Source: Vulcanimicrobiota bacterium
GTDB lineage: Bacteria > Vulcanimicrobiota > Vulcanimicrobiia > Vulcanimicrobiales > Vulcanimicrobiaceae
NCBI GenBank assembly: GCA_963699205.1
Contig: OY969421.1
Coordinates: 1,624,427-1,688,426, forward strand
Direction: 5' to 3'
Length of the DNA stretch: 64,000 nucleotides
Position 1 is the first letter of the stretch; every line of letters starts with the position of its first letter. The notes beneath the pieces are model-generated. The model was given only the letters and a program-made list of their open reading frames with translations. It was not told the origin of the DNA and made no database searches. Shown here in pieces: positions 43,583 through 50,197 of this stretch. The position numbers and the translations under genes were made by a program.

Positions 43583-46000
43583 TTATGAGGCTTTCTTCCG
43601 CGGAGCCGTAGCGCGCTTGCGCTTGGGCTTTTCGGGGGCATTTTCTGACGAGCTTTCGCTCCGCGTGGCGCGAGAACGTTTTGGCCTCGCTTCCGGCGTC
43701 GTTTCTTCGGACGCGCGCTTCAAGCGACTGCGGCGCACGTTTCTTTGCGCGGGGAGCGCGAGGGCGCTCGCCGCCCCTTCCAACTCTCCCGGAGTCGCGG
43801 GCTGGACCGTGGCGGTGCGGCGCCGTCGCCGGGTGGGTTGCGGCCGCTTCGGCTCTTGCGCGGGGGGCATCGAAAGGCTCGGAGGGGGCGGCGCGACGGC
43901 CGGCGGCGGGGCCGGGAGGACGGGAGCGATCGGAAATGCCTCTTCCGTGACGGCTTCCGCGACTCCGATCGGCGGTCGCCCGCCGCGGCCACGGCGTCGC
44001 CGACGTCGTCGGCGGCGTTTCCGCCCGCCTCCCTCACCTTGAGTTGAGGCTTCGGCTCCGATGACGATCGCGTCGGGTTGCGCTTCGCCCCTGCGCTCTG
44101 CGCGCAGCGCCTTGTCTTGCTCCTCTTCTTCCTCAGTTGCCGAAGATATGCCGATCGGCGGGCGCGCCGCCGATTGCCGTGCGGCGTCCTCCGCAAGCTC
44201 GCGCAATTGACGCGTCCGTTCGGCAGGGGTCGGCTCCGCACGGCGCGCCGGCCGCCGCTTGCGGGGCTTCGCACCCACAGTCACGAGGTCGGCCAAGACG
44301 TAATCGCGTTCGTCATCCACGTCCAGAATACGAATGCGAACGAAGTTACCGGCGTTGCTTGCGGCGTTTTCCACTTCCGCGATGCGTCCATCGACCACCG
44401 CGGCGGCCGACGTCGCGTTGGGCAAACGCCCCGGCAAAAGTTCGACCTCTTGTTCGTCGCCGACGCGCACCGCGTGTGCACGTTTCGTCCCGCGAGGCGC
44501 GACTTCGATCCGCGCCCTTTCGGGATGAATCATTGGATCGACGCGAACGAAGATCGTACGACCGAGCGCTCGCGCAAGTTCCTGACACTCGTTTTGGTAC
44601 CAAAAATCCATCTGAACGGCGACGGTCGGCGCGACGTGCGCGATCACGTCGCCGGTCGCGCCGTGGCGCACTTCATGCCGAATCTGTCGAAACGTCTCAA
44701 TCGCAACGGACTGCGCCGACATGACGCTGCCGACGCCGTCGCACGTCGGACAACCGCCGCGTAACTGAGCGCCGAGATCTTTTCCGATTCGCTTTCGAGT
44801 GAACTCGAGTAATCCCAAGTTGGAAAACGATTGAATCGTCGCCCGAGTCCGGTCGCGCCGAAGACTTTCTTCCATTTTGGCGATCACTTTTTCCCGCGAC
44901 CCGTCCGAAGCCATGTCGATGAAATCGACGACGACGATGCCGCCGATGTCGCGCAAGCGTACTTGCCGCGCGATCTCTTCGGCCGCCTCCATGTTCGTTC
45001 TTAGGATCGTATCTTCGAGGTTGCGGCCGCCCGTGAACTTGCCGGAATTGACGTCAATCACGGTAAGTGCCTCGGTCGATTCGATAACGATCGACGCGCC
45101 CGAAGGAAGATTGATCTTCGGCTTCATCAGCTTTTGCAGTTCTTCGTTGATCTTGTAGTCCTCGAAGAGCTGTCGTCCCATGTTGTAATACTCGAGCCGG
45201 CCGATGTATTGCGGACCGAGCAGTTGAAGAAGATCGCGAACCTTGCGGTACTCTTCCTCGTCGTCGATCAACACGCGATCGACGTCCGCCGTAATGAAAT
45301 CGCGCGCAGCCTTGTAAATCAGATTCATGTCTTTATGGAGCAACGACGGGGAAGCCGCGCGCTTATACGTTTCAAGAATGCCGTGCCACATTCGAATCAG
45401 CACCCCCAGATCGGCGATAAGCTCGGCTTCGCTCGCGCCCGACGCGGCGGTACGGACGACGGTTGCCATGCCTTCGGGGCGGATGCGCTTCATCACCGAC
45501 TTGAGCCGGTTGCGCTCGTCGACGGAGTCGACCTTGCGCGAAACGCCCGAATATTTGCCCGTCGGCATCAAAATGAGATAGCGCCCGGGCAGCGAGATAT
45601 TGGTCGAAATTCGGGCGCCCTTGAGCCCGCGCGGCTCCTTGACGATCTGCACCAAAACGTCGTCGCCGCGTTTTACCTTCTCGCTGATCGTGAAACCGCT
45701 ATGGCCCTGTGTAATTTCGACGTCGCCGATGTTGAGCGGTTGCTTGTTAATATCGTCAACGTAGAGAAAGGCGTTGCGGCCCAAGCCGATATCGACGAAC
45801 GCAGCCCCCATCCCGGGAAGCACGTTCTGCACCTTTCCTTTATAGATCGAGCCGATGACTTTCTCTTCGCGCTCGATGTAGAGCTCGGCTAAGCCGCCGT
45901 TCTCTAGTATCGCGACCCGGTTTTCCCACGGGTCGCTCGAGATCAATATCTCGCTCGCCAAATTGTCCTCAAGAAAATGTTCGAACTTGCCGGTCGCCAC
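43583..46000 (-). CDS. Ribonuclease E/G family protein with an Arg/Pro-rich C-terminal extension
   Basis: N-terminal S1 domain (IYKGKVQNVLPGMGAAFVDIG). Catalytic core (VIDVNSGKF, GGIVVVDFIDM). Zn-link CPTCDGVG. C-terminal tail with RKRRRRRRRRRGRGGRPP and a Pro/Ala-rich stretch. Confidence 0.85.
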   Translation of the reverse strand: MATGKFEHFLEDNLASEILISSDPWENRVAILENGGLAELYIEREEKVIGSIYKGKVQNVLPGMGAAFVDIGLGRNAFLYVDDINKQPLNIGDVEITQGHSGFTISEKVKRGDDVLVQIVKEPRGLKGARISTNISLPGRYLILMPTGKYSGVSRKVDSVDERNRLKSVMKRIRPEGMATVVRTAASGASEAELIADLGVLIRMWHGILETYKRAASPSLLHKDMNLIYKAARDFITADVDRVLIDDEEEYRKVRDLLQLLGPQYIGRLEYYNMGRQLFEDYKINEELQKLMKPKINLPSGASIVIESTEALTVIDVNSGKFTGGRNLEDTILRTNMEAAEEIARQVRLRDIGGIVVVDFIDMASDGSREKVIAKMEESLRRDRTRATIQSFSNLGLLEFTRKRIGKDLGAQLRGGCPTCDGVGSVMSAQSVAIETFRQIRHEVRHGATGDVIAHVAPTVAVQMDFWYQNECQELARALGRTIFVRVDPMIHPERARIEVAPRGTKRAHAVRVGDEQEVELLPGRLPNATSAAAVVDGRIAEVENAASNAGNFVRIRILDVDDERDYVLADLVTVGAKPRKRRPARRAEPTPAERTRQLRELAEDAARQSAARPPIGISSATEEEEEQDKALRAERRGEAQPDAIVIGAEASTQGEGGGRKRRRRRRRRRGRGGRPPIGVAEAVTEEAFPIAPVLPAPPPAVAPPPPSLSMPPAQEPKRPQPTRRRRRTATVQPATPGELEGAASALALPAQRNVRRSRLKRASEETTPEARPKRSRATRSESSSENAPEKPKRKRATAPRKKAS

Positions 46001-46110: not shown

Positions 46111-47247
46111 CTAGGCATTGCCGAGAACGTCGCGATCCTTCTGAGAATAAATATTCAGCAGAATACCGACCGCGGCAAAATCGGTCAGCATCGCCGAGCC
46201 GCCGTAGGACATGAAAGGCAGCGGAATTCCGGTGATCGGCATGATGCCGATCGTCATCCCAACGTTGACGAGCACGTGAAAGAACAACATCCCTACTAAC
46301 CCGGCGGCCAACAGGAAACCGAAGCGGTCGCGCGCCGCCAGCATTGTCCGAATACCCGCATAGACGATCGCGGCATAGAGCACCAGCAAGAGCAGTGCGC
46401 CGGCGAAGCCCCACTCTTCGGCGAGTACCGTAAAGATAAAGTCTCGAGAATGTTCCGGCACGAAGTTGAGTTGCGTCTGCGTGCCATGATAAATTCCGCG
46501 TCCGAAGAGTTCGCCGTTGCCGACGGCGATCTCCGATTGGTTCAAGTTATACCCGGAGCCCTGCGGATCGGCTTTGGGATTGAGAAAAACGAAAAGTCTC
46601 GTCCGCTGAAACGGTTTGAGGACCGCATTGGTCCCCACGGCGCCCGCTGCAATAACCAGCATCCCCAACAAATAGATCGCGAAATCACCGAGTTTCGGAA
46701 GCGCAAAAAAGAGATCGACGGTAAGTATCGCAACCAGCACCAACGAGGTTCCGAGATCGGGTTGCTTGAGAATCAGGAGCGCCGGAACCGCAACGGTGAG
46801 CAGCGGCTTCCACAGCTGGAGCAAATTATCAAACGTCTTCGCCGACAACACCGCAGCCAGCGCGATTGCAACCATCAGTTTGGCAGGCTCCGACGGCTGA
46901 AACGTACCCAGCGGCCCCAGAGAGATCCAACGCTGCGCTCCCATGGCGCTGTGTCCGCCCCGCAAAATGAAGAGCAGCAGCAACAGATTAGCGATGTAGA
47001 GCGGCAAGGCCCACCGCTGCCAGTTGCGATAATCGACGAGCGATAGCCCAATCATCAGCCCGACGCCCATGGCGAAATACAGTGTCTGCTTCTGGAACTC
47101 GCCGGTCGCGCCGGGAGAGTGAATCCCTGCCGACTTAATACAGACTAGTCCAACGAATGCTATTCCGACGGCACAGCACGCGAGGAGCCAGTTGTTCCGC
47201 CGCGCGAAGCGCCGCATTTCGGCGGCGCGAAGCGCCAGTACCGCCAC
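46111..47247 (-). CDS. rodA: SEDS family protein, RodA-like
   Basis: About 10 TM segments. Conserved QPSEPAKL, DLGT, FIFTVLAEEWGF, PLPFMSYGGS. Immediately downstream of minE. Confidence 0.8.
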   Translation of the reverse strand: MAVLALRAAEMRRFARRNNWLLACCAVGIAFVGLVCIKSAGIHSPGATGEFQKQTLYFAMGVGLMIGLSLVDYRNWQRWALPLYIANLLLLLFILRGGHSAMGAQRWISLGPLGTFQPSEPAKLMVAIALAAVLSAKTFDNLLQLWKPLLTVAVPALLILKQPDLGTSLVLVAILTVDLFFALPKLGDFAIYLLGMLVIAAGAVGTNAVLKPFQRTRLFVFLNPKADPQGSGYNLNQSEIAVGNGELFGRGIYHGTQTQLNFVPEHSRDFIFTVLAEEWGFAGALLLLVLYAAIVYAGIRTMLAARDRFGFLLAAGLVGMLFFHVLVNVGMTIGIMPITGIPLPFMSYGGSAMLTDFAAVGILLNIYSQKDRDVLGNA

Positions 47248-47258
47248 GGTTTCGTTGA

Positions 47259-47696
47259 CTACGGAGCAACTGGCGCCGGCGCAGGCGCTGATTTCTTGCG
47301 ACGGCGTCGTCTGCGCGTGGGCGGCGTTTGACCGGCAGCACCCGGTTTTGCGGTTCCCGCTTTCTTCCTTTTGCTTGCGGCCGAAGAATCCGAGGCGACG
47401 GCCGTCGCATGTTCTTCACGCTTGCCGTTCCCGTTAGGAGTGGGCCGGTTGACGGAGAGAATCGGGATGTTGGCCAGCATGGCGAGCGCGCTCTCTTGAC
47501 GTTCGAAGTTGACTTCGATTCGTGCGCGATCGACCTCGACGTGACGCGAGATCACGTCGACGAGATCGCGTTTCATCATGTCAATTATTTCGGGCGCGAG
47601 TTCGAGATGATCCGTCATCAACACCAAACGCAGGCGCTCCTTTGCGGTCGCGCTCGAACCACGTTGGCCAAAAAGCCGTCGCAAGAAGTCGATCAC
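47259..47696 (-). CDS. minE: Cell division topological specificity factor MinE with a basic C-terminal extension of about 60 aa
   Basis: MIDFLRRLFGQRGSSATAKERLRLVL... MinE core of about 85 aa. Then NGNGKREEH...KRKKAGTAKPGAAGQTPPTRRRRRRKKSAPAPAPVAP. Its start overlaps the stop of the upstream minD paralog by 4 nt. Confidence 0.85.
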   Translation of the reverse strand: MIDFLRRLFGQRGSSATAKERLRLVLMTDHLELAPEIIDMMKRDLVDVISRHVEVDRARIEVNFERQESALAMLANIPILSVNRPTPNGNGKREEHATAVASDSSAASKRKKAGTAKPGAAGQTPPTRRRRRRKKSAPAPAPVAP

Positions 47697-48547
47697 GAGC
47701 GACGGCCTCCGAATACCGAGGTTAGCCGCTCGAGCAGCGTTTGCTTCGCTACCGGAGGCATCGGGACGGGAATCTCTTCGCCGGCGAGTCGAGCCGCGAT
47801 TGCGTGGTAGGCTGCAGCGGTGGGATTATCTTTGCGTAATGCCAGCGGCTCGCCTCGATTAGTGGTGATGATGATTTCGGGTTCATCCGCAATCACGCCC
47901 AGCAGCGGCAAGCGCAGGATCGCATTGACGTCGTCGACTGAGAGCATCTTTCCGCGCTTGACCAACTGCGGACGCAGACGATTCACGATCAGCTGCGGGT
48001 GAAAACGGTTCCCGAGCAGCCCGATCACGCGATCGACGTCCCGCACGGCCGACACTTCAGGCGTGCAAAGCACGATCGCTTCGTCGGCGCCCGCGATCGC
48101 GTTGCGAAATCCGAGCTCGATCCCGGCCGGGCAGTCAATCAACACGAAATCGAATCGCTCTCGCAGCCTGCCGATCAGGCCCTCCATCTGCGCCGTTTGT
48201 ATCTCGTCCTTCTCGCGCGATTGCGCGGCGGCCAGCAACCGAAGGTTCTCACCGTGCTTGCCGGCCACCAAGGCTTCGTCAAGATCCACGCGCTCTTCCA
48301 AGACGTCGAGCACGTGGTATTTCACTCGGCTTTCGAGGCCCAGTACGATATCGAGATTGCGCAGACCGACGTCGGCATCCACCAACACGACGCTCGCGCC
48401 TCGCGCGGCCAGCGCCGTGCCGAGATTGGCGGTGGTGGTCGTTTTGCCGACTCCGCCTTTGCCGGACGTTAGGACGATGGCTCGACCCCGCCGCACGGCC
48501 GCGGCGTTGGCCTCGGCTTCGATCGCAATCGGCTCGATGTCTTGCAC
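47693..48547 (-). CDS. MinD-type ATPase, second tandem paralog
   Basis: Deviant Walker A TSGKGGVGKTTTTANLG, DADVGLRNLD, IDCPAGIE, NRLRPQLVKRGKMLSVDDV, TTNRGEPLAL. C-terminal TLLERLTSVFGG, an amphipathic-looking tail. GTG start 1 nt after the minD stop. Confidence 0.85.
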   Translation of the reverse strand: MQDIEPIAIEAEANAAAVRRGRAIVLTSGKGGVGKTTTTANLGTALAARGASVVLVDADVGLRNLDIVLGLESRVKYHVLDVLEERVDLDEALVAGKHGENLRLLAAAQSREKDEIQTAQMEGLIGRLRERFDFVLIDCPAGIELGFRNAIAGADEAIVLCTPEVSAVRDVDRVIGLLGNRFHPQLIVNRLRPQLVKRGKMLSVDDVNAILRLPLLGVIADEPEIIITTNRGEPLALRKDNPTAAAYHAIAARLAGEEIPVPMPPVAKQTLLERLTSVFGGRRS

Positions 48548-48548
48548 G

Positions 48549-49340
48549 TTACCCCGCTTTCAGCGCTCCAATGAGACGGCCCAAGAGGCCTGGCTGGTCA
48601 AAAGTCGTAAACGGAACTAGTTCGCCTTCCAAGCGCCGCACGATCTTGTCATAAATTACACTGAGCCGGCTCGCGTCCCGCAGGGCAATCGGTTCGCCGC
48701 GATTGGTCGTGTCAATGACGTCTTCATCTTCGGGGACGACTCCCACGAGTTCGATCGCCAGGACGTCACAGACGTCTTCGACGGACAGCATGTCGCCGTT
48801 GCTGACCATTTCGGGCCGCAAGCGGTTGACGATGAGACGAATCGGTTTGCCGGCGGCGGCGATTTTGCCGACGACGCGATCGGCATCACGGATGGAACTG
48901 ACCTCGGGCGTCGTCACGACGATTGCTTCCGCAGCCCCTGCGACGGCGTTCCGAAAACCGGCCTCGATGCCGGCCGGCGAATCGACGATCACGTAATCGG
49001 ATTGTTCCGCCGCCTGATCGACGATCGACGTAAACTGCTCCGGCGTGATCGCGTCTTTTTCGCGCGTTTGAGCCGCCGGTAAGATCGCCAGGGATTCGAA
49101 GCGCTTGTCTTTGATGAGCGCCTGCCGGAGTTGGCAGCGTCCTTCGGCCACTTCGACCAAGTCGAACACGATTCGCTTTTCCAGCCCCAGCACCAAATCG
49201 AGATTGCGTAAGCCGATATCCGCGTCGATGAGTACGACGCGTTTTCCTCGCTTGGCCAAGGTCGCGCCAAGGTTCGCGGTCGTCGTCGTCTTGCCGACGC
49301 CGCCCTTGCCGGACGTCACGACGATTCGCCGAGCGCTCAT
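48549..49340 (-). CDS. minD: Septum site-determining ATPase MinD
   Basis: MSARRIVVTSGKGGVGKTTTTANLG, DADIGLRNLD, VDSPAGIE, NRLRPEMVSNGDMLSVEDV, TTNRGEPIAL. C-terminal GLLGRLIGALKAG membrane-targeting-like helix. Its ATG overlaps the minC stop (ATGA). Confidence 0.9.
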   Translation of the reverse strand: MSARRIVVTSGKGGVGKTTTTANLGATLAKRGKRVVLIDADIGLRNLDLVLGLEKRIVFDLVEVAEGRCQLRQALIKDKRFESLAILPAAQTREKDAITPEQFTSIVDQAAEQSDYVIVDSPAGIEAGFRNAVAGAAEAIVVTTPEVSSIRDADRVVGKIAAAGKPIRLIVNRLRPEMVSNGDMLSVEDVCDVLAIELVGVVPEDEDVIDTTNRGEPIALRDASRLSVIYDKIVRRLEGELVPFTTFDQPGLLGRLIGALKAG

Positions 49341-50197
49341 GACGGCACGTTGGCGGCCACGAGTTCGGCGAGCCGTCGCAGTGGAACGATCCCGATTTTG
49401 CCGTCGCGCACGAACGCGACTTCGGGTGACGTCGCCAATCGGCGCGCCGGTTCCGGCTCCGTCGCGATGCACGTGGCGATACGCAGTTGCGTCGCAAGCA
49501 GTTCAACTGCATAAATGCGCGATTGCAGTTCCCCGCCGGCCCCGGCATGCGCGATGCCGCCAAGCCTTCCGAAAACGACGATATCGCCCGTAGCCACCAA
49601 CTCGGCACCGGGATTGACATCGCCCACGACCACGATGTTTCCGGTATGGTGAAGCACCTGCCCGCCCCGCAGCGTCGCCGCATGATAGAGGGTGGCCGTC
49701 GGCGTTTCGACGAGCCGCAGGCTCGCTTGCCGCGAGTCTTTGCTATCGATGCGTAACCGCGGGACGCTGGCCTCGCCTCGCCGTCGTCGCTGCGCGATGT
49801 CGCCGCGAGCGCCCGCGAAGTCTGCAATGAGCGAGCTCGCCGAGTCGGACAGTTTGATGCGTGCGCGGCTCTCGAACGCCAAGGACGCATCCGTGGCGAG
49901 CTCCTCCAAACCGTCGGCGGCGCCGGCGAGAGCGCTCAGCGTGATTCCGGCCTCGCCCAAGAGCGCCCGCAGCCGCGCCACGCTATCACGCGTGGGACAT
50001 GCATTACCGAAGTTCGCGACGGCGTGACTTCCGTTGTAAAAGCCGGGTTGCTGGGCGAGGCGAGCTTCCAGCTGCACGAAAGCCTGCTCCAAGTCATGCT
50101 CCGGCAACGTGACTTCAAGTCCGTCACGCCTGCCGCGCAAGAGTGTCACGCCGCCCTGTGCGGGAACGCTAAAGAAGAAACCTTGCCCCCTCCCCAC
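49337..50197 (-). CDS. minC: Septum site-determining protein MinC
   Basis: C-terminal beta-helix repeat LRGGQVLHHTGNIVVVGDVNPGAELVATGDIVVFGRLGGIAHAG. Positioned upstream of minD. Confidence 0.8.
   Translation of the reverse strand: MGRGQGFFFSVPAQGGVTLLRGRRDGLEVTLPEHDLEQAFVQLEARLAQQPGFYNGSHAVANFGNACPTRDSVARLRALLGEAGITLSALAGAADGLEELATDASLAFESRARIKLSDSASSLIADFAGARGDIAQRRRRGEASVPRLRIDSKDSRQASLRLVETPTATLYHAATLRGGQVLHHTGNIVVVGDVNPGAELVATGDIVVFGRLGGIAHAGAGGELQSRIYAVELLATQLRIATCIATEPEPARRLATSPEVAFVRDGKIGIVPLRRLAELVAANVPS

Follow-up and report, generated by a model that had tools for sequence, protein, structure and literature searches.

Two diverged minD genes lie back to back in the min operon of a Vulcanimicrobiota bacterium (GenBank assembly GCA_963699205.1, contig OY969421.1), and the tandem MinD pair is real and runs through the whole class Vulcanimicrobiia. 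The window, meaning the entire stretch of 64,000 nucleotides (nt) that was analysed (positions 1,624,427 to 1,688,426 of the contig), carries minC, minD1, minD2, minE and rodA in that order of transcription, all on the reverse strand. The genes of interest are minD1 (48549-49340, reverse strand), encoding 263 amino acids (aa), the canonical length, and minD2 (47693-48547, reverse strand), encoding 284 aa counted from its GTG start codon.

Two bacterial MinDs in one operon

Both proteins are recognised by the NCBIfam equivalog model for bacterial MinD (TIGR01968, minD_bact; cut-off 212.9 bits), MinD1 with 370.3 and MinD2 with 343.7 bits, and Pfam agrees. In a six-frame search of the 2.48-Mb source genome (one contig, 97% complete) with the MinD model, these two genes are the only matches above the cut-off. 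The motifs TSGKGGVGKTTTTANLG, DAD(I/V)GLRNLD, D(S/C)PAG, NRLRP...MLSV(E/D)DV and TTNRGEP are common to both translations, so that all the MinD motifs listed in the first-pass annotation of the sequence, the deviant Walker A among them, are present in each copy. By BLASTP the two products are 55% identical over 241 aa (E = 4e-86), close to the half of all positions estimated earlier by eye, and at this level of identity the second gene is not an assembly repeat.

The opposite concern, that minD2 might be another kind of ParA-type ATPase (an orphan ParA, FlhG or a MipZ-like protein) or a MinD acquired horizontally, is extremely improbable, and a first set of evidence on it comes from family models and folds. 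MinD2 scores 60 bits with ParA_partition (cut-off 180) and 167.6 bits with the archaeal model minD_arch (cut-off 201.75), both below the cut-off. Sequence matches of MinD1 in the Protein Data Bank (PDB) are 4V03 (at 4.9e-77), 6RIQ and 3Q9L, and the best PDB matches of MinD2 are likewise MinD. Fold prediction and Foldseek comparison were applied to MinD2; the AlphaFold2 model has a predicted local distance difference test score (pLDDT) of 81.8, with the core at about 90, and a predicted template modelling score (pTM) of 0.81. Its top Foldseek matches are 6RIQ (chain C), 4V03, 3R9J and 3Q9L (target-normalised template modelling score 0.91-0.94, root-mean-square deviation 1.4-1.9 Å), and archaeal MinD, FleN/FlhG and Soj all rank under the MinD structures. 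Family cut-offs, PDB matches and fold matches together rule out ParA, FlhG or MipZ as the identity of MinD2, and place the second copy inside MinD, where the first-pass annotation had put it. Both genes are genuine minD genes of the bacterial type.

The operon around them is tightly packed. Upstream, minC (49337-50197, reverse strand; 286 aa; TIGR01222 98 bits, cut-off 95.25; Pfam MinC_C and MinC_N) ends in an ATGA that its stop codon shares with the ATG start of minD1, a 4-nt overlap evident from the open reading frame (ORF) listing and the sequence. A single base, 48548, separates the TAA of minD1 from the GTG of minD2. Downstream, the TGA stop of minD2 and the GTG start of minE share GTGA at 47693-47696, another 4-nt overlap, and minE itself (47259-47696, reverse strand; 145 aa; TIGR01215 62 bits, cut-off 49.3; Pfam MinE) is followed by rodA (46111-47247, reverse strand; 378 aa; TIGR02210 391.6 bits, cut-off 336.7). 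The tandem layout, the 1-nt gap and the overlap of minD2 with minE had all been read from the window at first pass, and the ORFs and junction sequence bear them out.

A class-wide arrangement

The class Vulcanimicrobiia (Eremiobacteria) comprises about 48 genera in families coded here f1, f2 and f3, within a phylum formerly called Eremiobacterota. Among 60 sampled relatives of the source genome, 57 have a MinD match, and each of these has exactly two, which are near neighbours on one strand of one contig. A sample of 201 genomes drawn evenly from the phylum has two MinDs in 131 of the 132 class genomes (one of the 131 shows three pieces) and no match in the remaining one, whereas outside the class exactly one MinD is found in 41 genomes and none in 28. 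No sampled class genome has exactly one. Apparent exceptions in the class have an assembly-level appearance: genome G173 has a contig break, and in G220, a 3-contig assembly, both genes lie in two pieces each with frame breaks. Three class genomes (completeness 85-90%) lack any match to MinD.

At one locus (L048, G049:C1:243671-244405) the MinD1 ortholog shifts frame within its P-loop; its reading there is SHRVKGGVGKTT, and the model aligns from position 10 onwards. The genome is in 6 contigs, and the shift reflects either an indel from sequencing or a pseudogene.

Gene order was compared in 20 loci from the class and 20 from outside it. The order minC-minD1-minD2-minE is found in 20/20 of the class loci, with a RodA match after minE in 17, and in every one the copy nearer minC is closer to MinD1 of the window and the copy nearer minE closer to MinD2. 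The tandem layout is a clean synapomorphy of the class. Among the carriers of the pair is G071, a genome of the same family that is a single contig of 3.51 Mb. A survey of min operons in the phylum had been proposed at first pass; its outcome is a duplication that is class-wide and absent from the genomes sampled in the rest of the phylum.

Beyond the phylum, the survey covered mostly Bacillota-type relatives (largely Clostridia and Bacilli) and Chloroflexota, with Pseudomonadota outside the sample. MinD occurs in 43 of 151 Chloroflexota genomes, none of which has two copies, and in 172 of 201 genomes of the Clostridia-type phylum, four of which (G395, G408, G521 and G556) have two. These Clostridia-type second MinDs resemble the pair described here in that both genes exceed the bacterial MinD cut-off, but they are confined to 4/172 genomes, and the three pairs with listed positions lie on separate contigs or about 1.45 Mb apart, none of them adjacent. 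Ten named genomes, including Paenibacillus, Desulfosporosinus, Fusobacterium and a Vampirovibrionales metagenome-assembled genome (MAG), all have MinD and none has two copies. The expectation that one MinD is the norm elsewhere thus held in the rest of the phylum, in Chloroflexota, in the Clostridia-type phylum and in the ten named genomes.

Origin of the pair

In a careful maximum-likelihood tree of 64 MinDs, the MinD1 orthologs (D1) and the MinD2 orthologs (D2) each form a clade, with supports of 100/97 and 100/99, and the phylum's single-copy MinDs form a clade of their own (89/90). The split of f1 and f2 from f3 is repeated inside both the D1 and the D2 clades. Between f1 and f3, identity is 68% for D1 and 63% for D2, and the D2 clade has the longer stem (0.70 vs 0.39 for D1). 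Five derived residues, G26A, E213D, S221T, D248G and P249E, are common to D1 and D2 when compared with the single-copy clade. The first-pass annotation had called the duplication old, and the two orthologous clades that run through the class in this phylogeny agree with it.

Two points weigh against a common origin of the copies within the class. The sister relation of D1 and D2 is only moderately supported, at 93/80, and a quick tree that includes 99 outside representatives does not resolve the relations between D1, D2 and the single-copy group. The same quick tree sets D2 apart from D1 (supports 83-87), which is the point in favour of a foreign or non-MinD origin of minD2. However, when D1 and D2 are constrained to be sisters with the 99 representatives added, the constrained tree is 26 log-likelihood units better than the free-search tree, and the approximately unbiased (AU) test gives it a p-AU of 0.757; the free quick search had therefore missed a tree in which D1 and D2 are sisters. 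Among 1.84 billion cluster representatives searched, none of full length outside D2's own cluster exceeds 54% identity to D2, and higher values come only from fragments or partial matches. With the five shared residues and the family and fold assignments given above, a non-MinD or foreign origin of minD2 appears largely refuted.

The sister clades, the AU test, the five derived residues and the tandem position together support a single tandem duplication that took place within the operon in the ancestor of the class, once that lineage had separated from the remainder of the phylum.

A group of MinD representatives of 390-725 aa (P0134-P0152) has long, unrelated N-terminal regions that were at first taken as extensions like that of D2. 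They are not D2 relatives: their C-termini are near-identical (QDYLIDLKTPYKG...) and they form a single tight clade in the tree. They look like plastid or algal-type MinDs with transit peptides or mis-called starts.

Both copies are intact

Residues are numbered after E. coli MinD through an alignment to 3Q9L. K11, K16, D38, D40 and D120 are invariant in 20/20 D1 and 21/21 D2 sequences. T17, R44, N45, E53, E146, D152, D154, M193, N222 and G224 are also invariant in both clades, and S148 and D198 are nearly so. Both copies therefore have the deviant Walker A motif xKGGxGK[ST] with its signature lysine K11 and K16, the switch I residues D38 and D40, and the Walker B residue D120. None of the columns conserved at 80% or more across 122 other MinDs is replaced in the D1 or the D2 clade, which rules out a degenerate or pseudo-ATPase copy. 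Pairwise ratios of nonsynonymous to synonymous substitution rates (dN/dS) are 0.04-0.13 for D1 and 0.05-0.16 for D2; both copies are under strong purifying selection.

The site for the partner proteins is also retained. Its residue set is E53, S148, D154, I/L159, M193, D198, N222 and G224; D2 keeps all of these and D1 all except 159. Of the set, E53, M193, D198, N222 and G224 are presumed members, from the E. coli literature. Helix 7, through S148, D154 and I159, contacts both the RSGQ motif of MinC and the contact helix of MinE, which share the site (review, PMC6803595).

Each protein ends in a putative C-terminal membrane-targeting helix, PGLLGRLIGAL in MinD1 (48561-48593, reverse strand) and QTLLERLTSVF in MinD2 (47711-47743, reverse strand). 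The first-pass annotation had ascribed an amphipathic look to both. In HMMER alignments the MinD1 tail pairs with KKGFLQRLFGG, the membrane-targeting end of P. aeruginosa MinD, and the MinD2 tail with the same end; in the AlphaFold2 model the MinD2 tail is a low-confidence helix (residues 271-279). Against this, neither tail exceeds internal control windows in hydrophobic moment. This measure is uninformative here, so that membrane binding is assigned to both tails by homology. With this proviso, MinD1 and MinD2 look like working, membrane-binding MinDs that would respond to MinC and MinE.

How the two copies have diverged

Within a genome of the class, MinD1 and MinD2 are 54-61% identical. 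The most visible difference between them is at the N-terminus of MinD2, where the window encodes an extension of about 20 aa (48488-48547, reverse strand) that is acidic and Ala/Pro-rich, then reads RRGR, and is predicted to be disordered (pLDDT <50 for residues 1-17). An alternative in-frame GTG at 48494-48496 could yield a protein of canonical length. However, several of the 21 related genomes lack any alternative minD2 start, which makes the extension a conserved feature; in 21/21 genomes minD2 has a start codon between -8 and +43 nt relative to the minD1 stop, in most cases only a few bases from it, and the spacer is open frame throughout. The GTG start and 20-aa extension proposed at first pass are accordingly real as an ORF, with the extension conserved in related genomes. 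No such extension is present in D1 or in the single-copy MinDs.

The length of the extension varies by family, from 16-20 aa in f1 and 28-39 aa in f2 to 27-177 aa in f3, and its composition is acidic and Ala/Pro-rich, usually with a basic patch preceding G-R-A-I-V. Certain subclades conserve short motifs in it, for example E-L-(L/I)-A-L-P-A-P and T-V-E-E-A-(L/I) in f3. The longest case is at locus L039 (G043:C42), where about 177 aa rich in Ala, Pro, Gly and Ser occupy a 548-nt open frame; in the f3 genomes related to L039, E-L-(L/I)-A-L-P-A-P stands near the start of the extension.

In the body of the protein the two clades differ at a small number of fixed positions. D1 has the ancestral residue at 41 (I, V in D2), 59 (D, H in D2) and 61 (V, L in D2). 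The changes fixed in D1 relative to other MinDs are N54K, L159K/M, Q192D, x219D and A235L. At 54, D1 has K and D2 has N or S, N being the single-copy state; at 159, D1 has M in f3 and K in the other two families, and D2 keeps the ancestral L found in single-copy MinDs; at 192, D1 has D and D2 has K (one R) in f1 and f2 and T (one S) in f3; at 219, D1 has D and D2 has V or I; and at 235, D1 has L and D2 has T.

These differences bear on the simplest explanation for two genes, namely that the second copy is redundant and persists for the sake of dosage or robustness, the two copies doing the same work. The retention by both copies of all known functional residues and of the same operon position would suit it. 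On the other side stand the low within-genome identity, the fixed differences held class-wide, the N-terminal extension private to MinD2 in 21/21 genomes and the strong purifying selection on both copies; redundant duplicates are also normally lost, yet there are no single-copy genomes in the class. Redundancy is accordingly a very unlikely explanation.

How the pair may work

The reading favoured here, which stands at about an even chance, is that MinD1 and MinD2 form a subfunctionalised pair within one Min system and act mainly as heterodimers. MinD dimerises via its nucleotide-sandwich motifs. The minD1 and minD2 genes are probably translationally coupled in one operon or message, and both proteins would be produced together from this tightly packed set of genes. 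Because both copies keep the conserved dimerisation motifs and would be co-produced, mixed MinD1-MinD2 dimers on the membrane would be the default expectation. Such a dimer would have two unequal grooves for MinC and MinE, one bearing the changed helix 7 of MinD1, with K or M and not L at 159, and the other the ancestral helix 7 of MinD2, and the competition of MinC and MinE for two identical sites would end. The acidic, disordered N-terminal tail of MinD2 would probably tune membrane or partner binding. The pair would then work as one subfunctionalised Min system with no spare copy.

Duplicates of related P-loop NTPases have turned into hetero-pairs: the two halves of ArsA (A1/A2), Nbp35-Cfd1 and Ffh-FtsY are duplicated nucleotide-sandwich dimers of the SIMIBI class whose halves are non-equivalent. 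They belong to other families with other functions, and are a precedent for the proposed mechanism only.

A possible sign of adjustment between partners comes from MinC. In the fetched loci (L034-L073), its MinD-contact motif is RGGQ in f1, f2 and the window and RSGQ in all f3; out of the class it is RSGQ in most, RAGQ in two and without a match in one. The lineages with RGGQ are exactly those with K at position 159 of D1 and K or R at position 192 of D2. The change of MinC from RSGQ to RGGQ along with D1-159 is suggestive of co-variation between partners.

Two considerations weigh against mixed dimers. The co-variation of the MinC motif with D1-159 is a single phylogenetic event, and the full catalytic and partner-site sets in both copies would fit two independent homodimers equally well. 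The latter leads to a different reading, which seems rather unlikely, in which MinD1 and MinD2 would form separate pools of homodimers that share MinE and set up two gradients or oscillators per cell. One pool, with MinC, would block polar division, and the other, probably MinD2 acting through its N-terminal tail, would position a different cargo such as the chromosome, pili or intracytoplasmic membranes.

Several observations are compatible with separate pools. Each copy appears to be a complete MinD that has a putative membrane tail of its own and retains the site for MinE, helix-7 residue 159 is unlike between the copies, and the subclade motifs in the f3 extensions of MinD2 could bind partners. 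Archaeal MinD paralogs have separate cargoes, according to two preprints (10.1101/2020.04.03.021790, 10.1101/2024.08.01.606218). Vulcanimicrobium alpinum, the one cultured relative, grows as rods and filaments 1.5-92 µm long (PMC9758169), and filaments of up to 92 µm hint at unusual division control. However, the dimer motifs common to both copies and co-expression from one operon would make mixing hard to avoid without negative design, of which none is seen at the conserved positions. No candidate gene for a second cargo was found in the operon in the 20 class loci, and the loss of neither copy in 131 genomes is less expected if their functions were separable.

The mixed-dimer reading also has a stricter form, an obligate MinD1-MinD2 heterodimer in which one groove would be tuned to MinC and the other to MinE so that both bind simultaneously; this form seems rather unlikely. 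If true, an obligate heterodimer would change how gradients or oscillations are generated and whether MinCD copolymers form, and the disordered tail of MinD2 would be an extra regulator.

Comparison with known systems

The locus shares with the canonical MinCDE systems of E. coli, P. aeruginosa and Aquifex aeolicus (3Q9L, 3R9I/J, 6RIQ, 4V02/3) the same three families in the same gene order. Like canonical MinD, both copies have the deviant Walker A lysine, the switch residues, the helix-7 site for MinC and MinE and a putative C-terminal membrane tail; MinE has its N-terminal membrane helix and contact helix, and MinC a motif of the RSGQ type. Unlike canonical MinCDE, the class has two minDs throughout, a changed helix 7 in MinD1 and a disordered extension on MinD2, and MinC of the window's family has RGGQ.

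One parallel comes from the laboratory. Park et al. (2015), as summarised in PMC6771821, engineered mutants of E. coli with asymmetric MinD heterodimers for probing the role of MinCD copolymers. The pair here would be like them in having non-equivalent MinC- and MinE-binding sides, with the difference that, if heterodimers form, these would be natural and ancient.

Haloferax volcanii (Euryarchaeota), with MinD1-4, likewise has several MinD-family ATPases per cell with divergent roles. Those proteins belong to the archaeal MinD subfamily, whereas the pair here is of the bacterial type and lies between minC and minE. According to the abstract of the preprint 10.1101/2024.08.01.606218, a role in division had not been demonstrated for any of the Haloferax MinD homologs.

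Other features of the locus

The minE product has the usual membrane helix at its N-terminus and a normal contact helix, AKERLRLVL; behind them comes a long C-terminal tail of about 60 aa (47259-47440, reverse strand), basic and rich in Pro and Ala. Throughout the phylum, almost every fetched locus has a long MinE reading frame (119-222 aa), those of single-MinD genomes included, so that the tail does not go with the duplication of MinD. Downstream of rodA lies an RNase E/G-like gene (43583-46000, reverse strand) with a run of Arg and a C-terminal region of about 230 aa that is Pro/Ala-rich and of low complexity.

Novelty and meaning

Close homologs of MinD2, at 75-91% identity, are already named MinD in public MAG records, mostly from 'Candidatus Eremiobacteraeota', 'Candidatus Cybelea sp.' and 'Candidatus Baltobacteraceae'; the NCBI taxonomy places Ca. 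Cybelea in the phylum Vulcanimicrobiota, class Vulcanimicrobiia. In the literature, no description of a bacterial MinD pair or of the Min genes of Eremiobacterota was found in searches made noisy by the word 'mind', and what did match concerned only MinD paralogs of archaea, MinD of plants and synthetic constructs. Min genes go unmentioned in the paper that describes Vulcanimicrobium alpinum (PMC9758169). The first-pass annotation had allowed that the duplication might already be widely annotated and hence real but not novel; the first part stands, in that relatives of the second copy are publicly annotated as MinD, and the second does not, since no paper was found that describes the pair. The pair is thus annotated, yet undescribed in the literature found.

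MinCDE is a textbook example of a self-organising protein pattern. To our knowledge, all current models of it assume a symmetric MinD homodimer, with MinC and MinE as rivals for its two identical sites. A diverged MinD pair kept across a whole class is a natural experiment on this assumption. Its study could reveal whether asymmetric dimers are functional, and what effect a disordered N-terminal tail has on membrane cycling. It could also show co-evolution between the partners, in the change of MinC from RSGQ to RGGQ together with that of helix 7.

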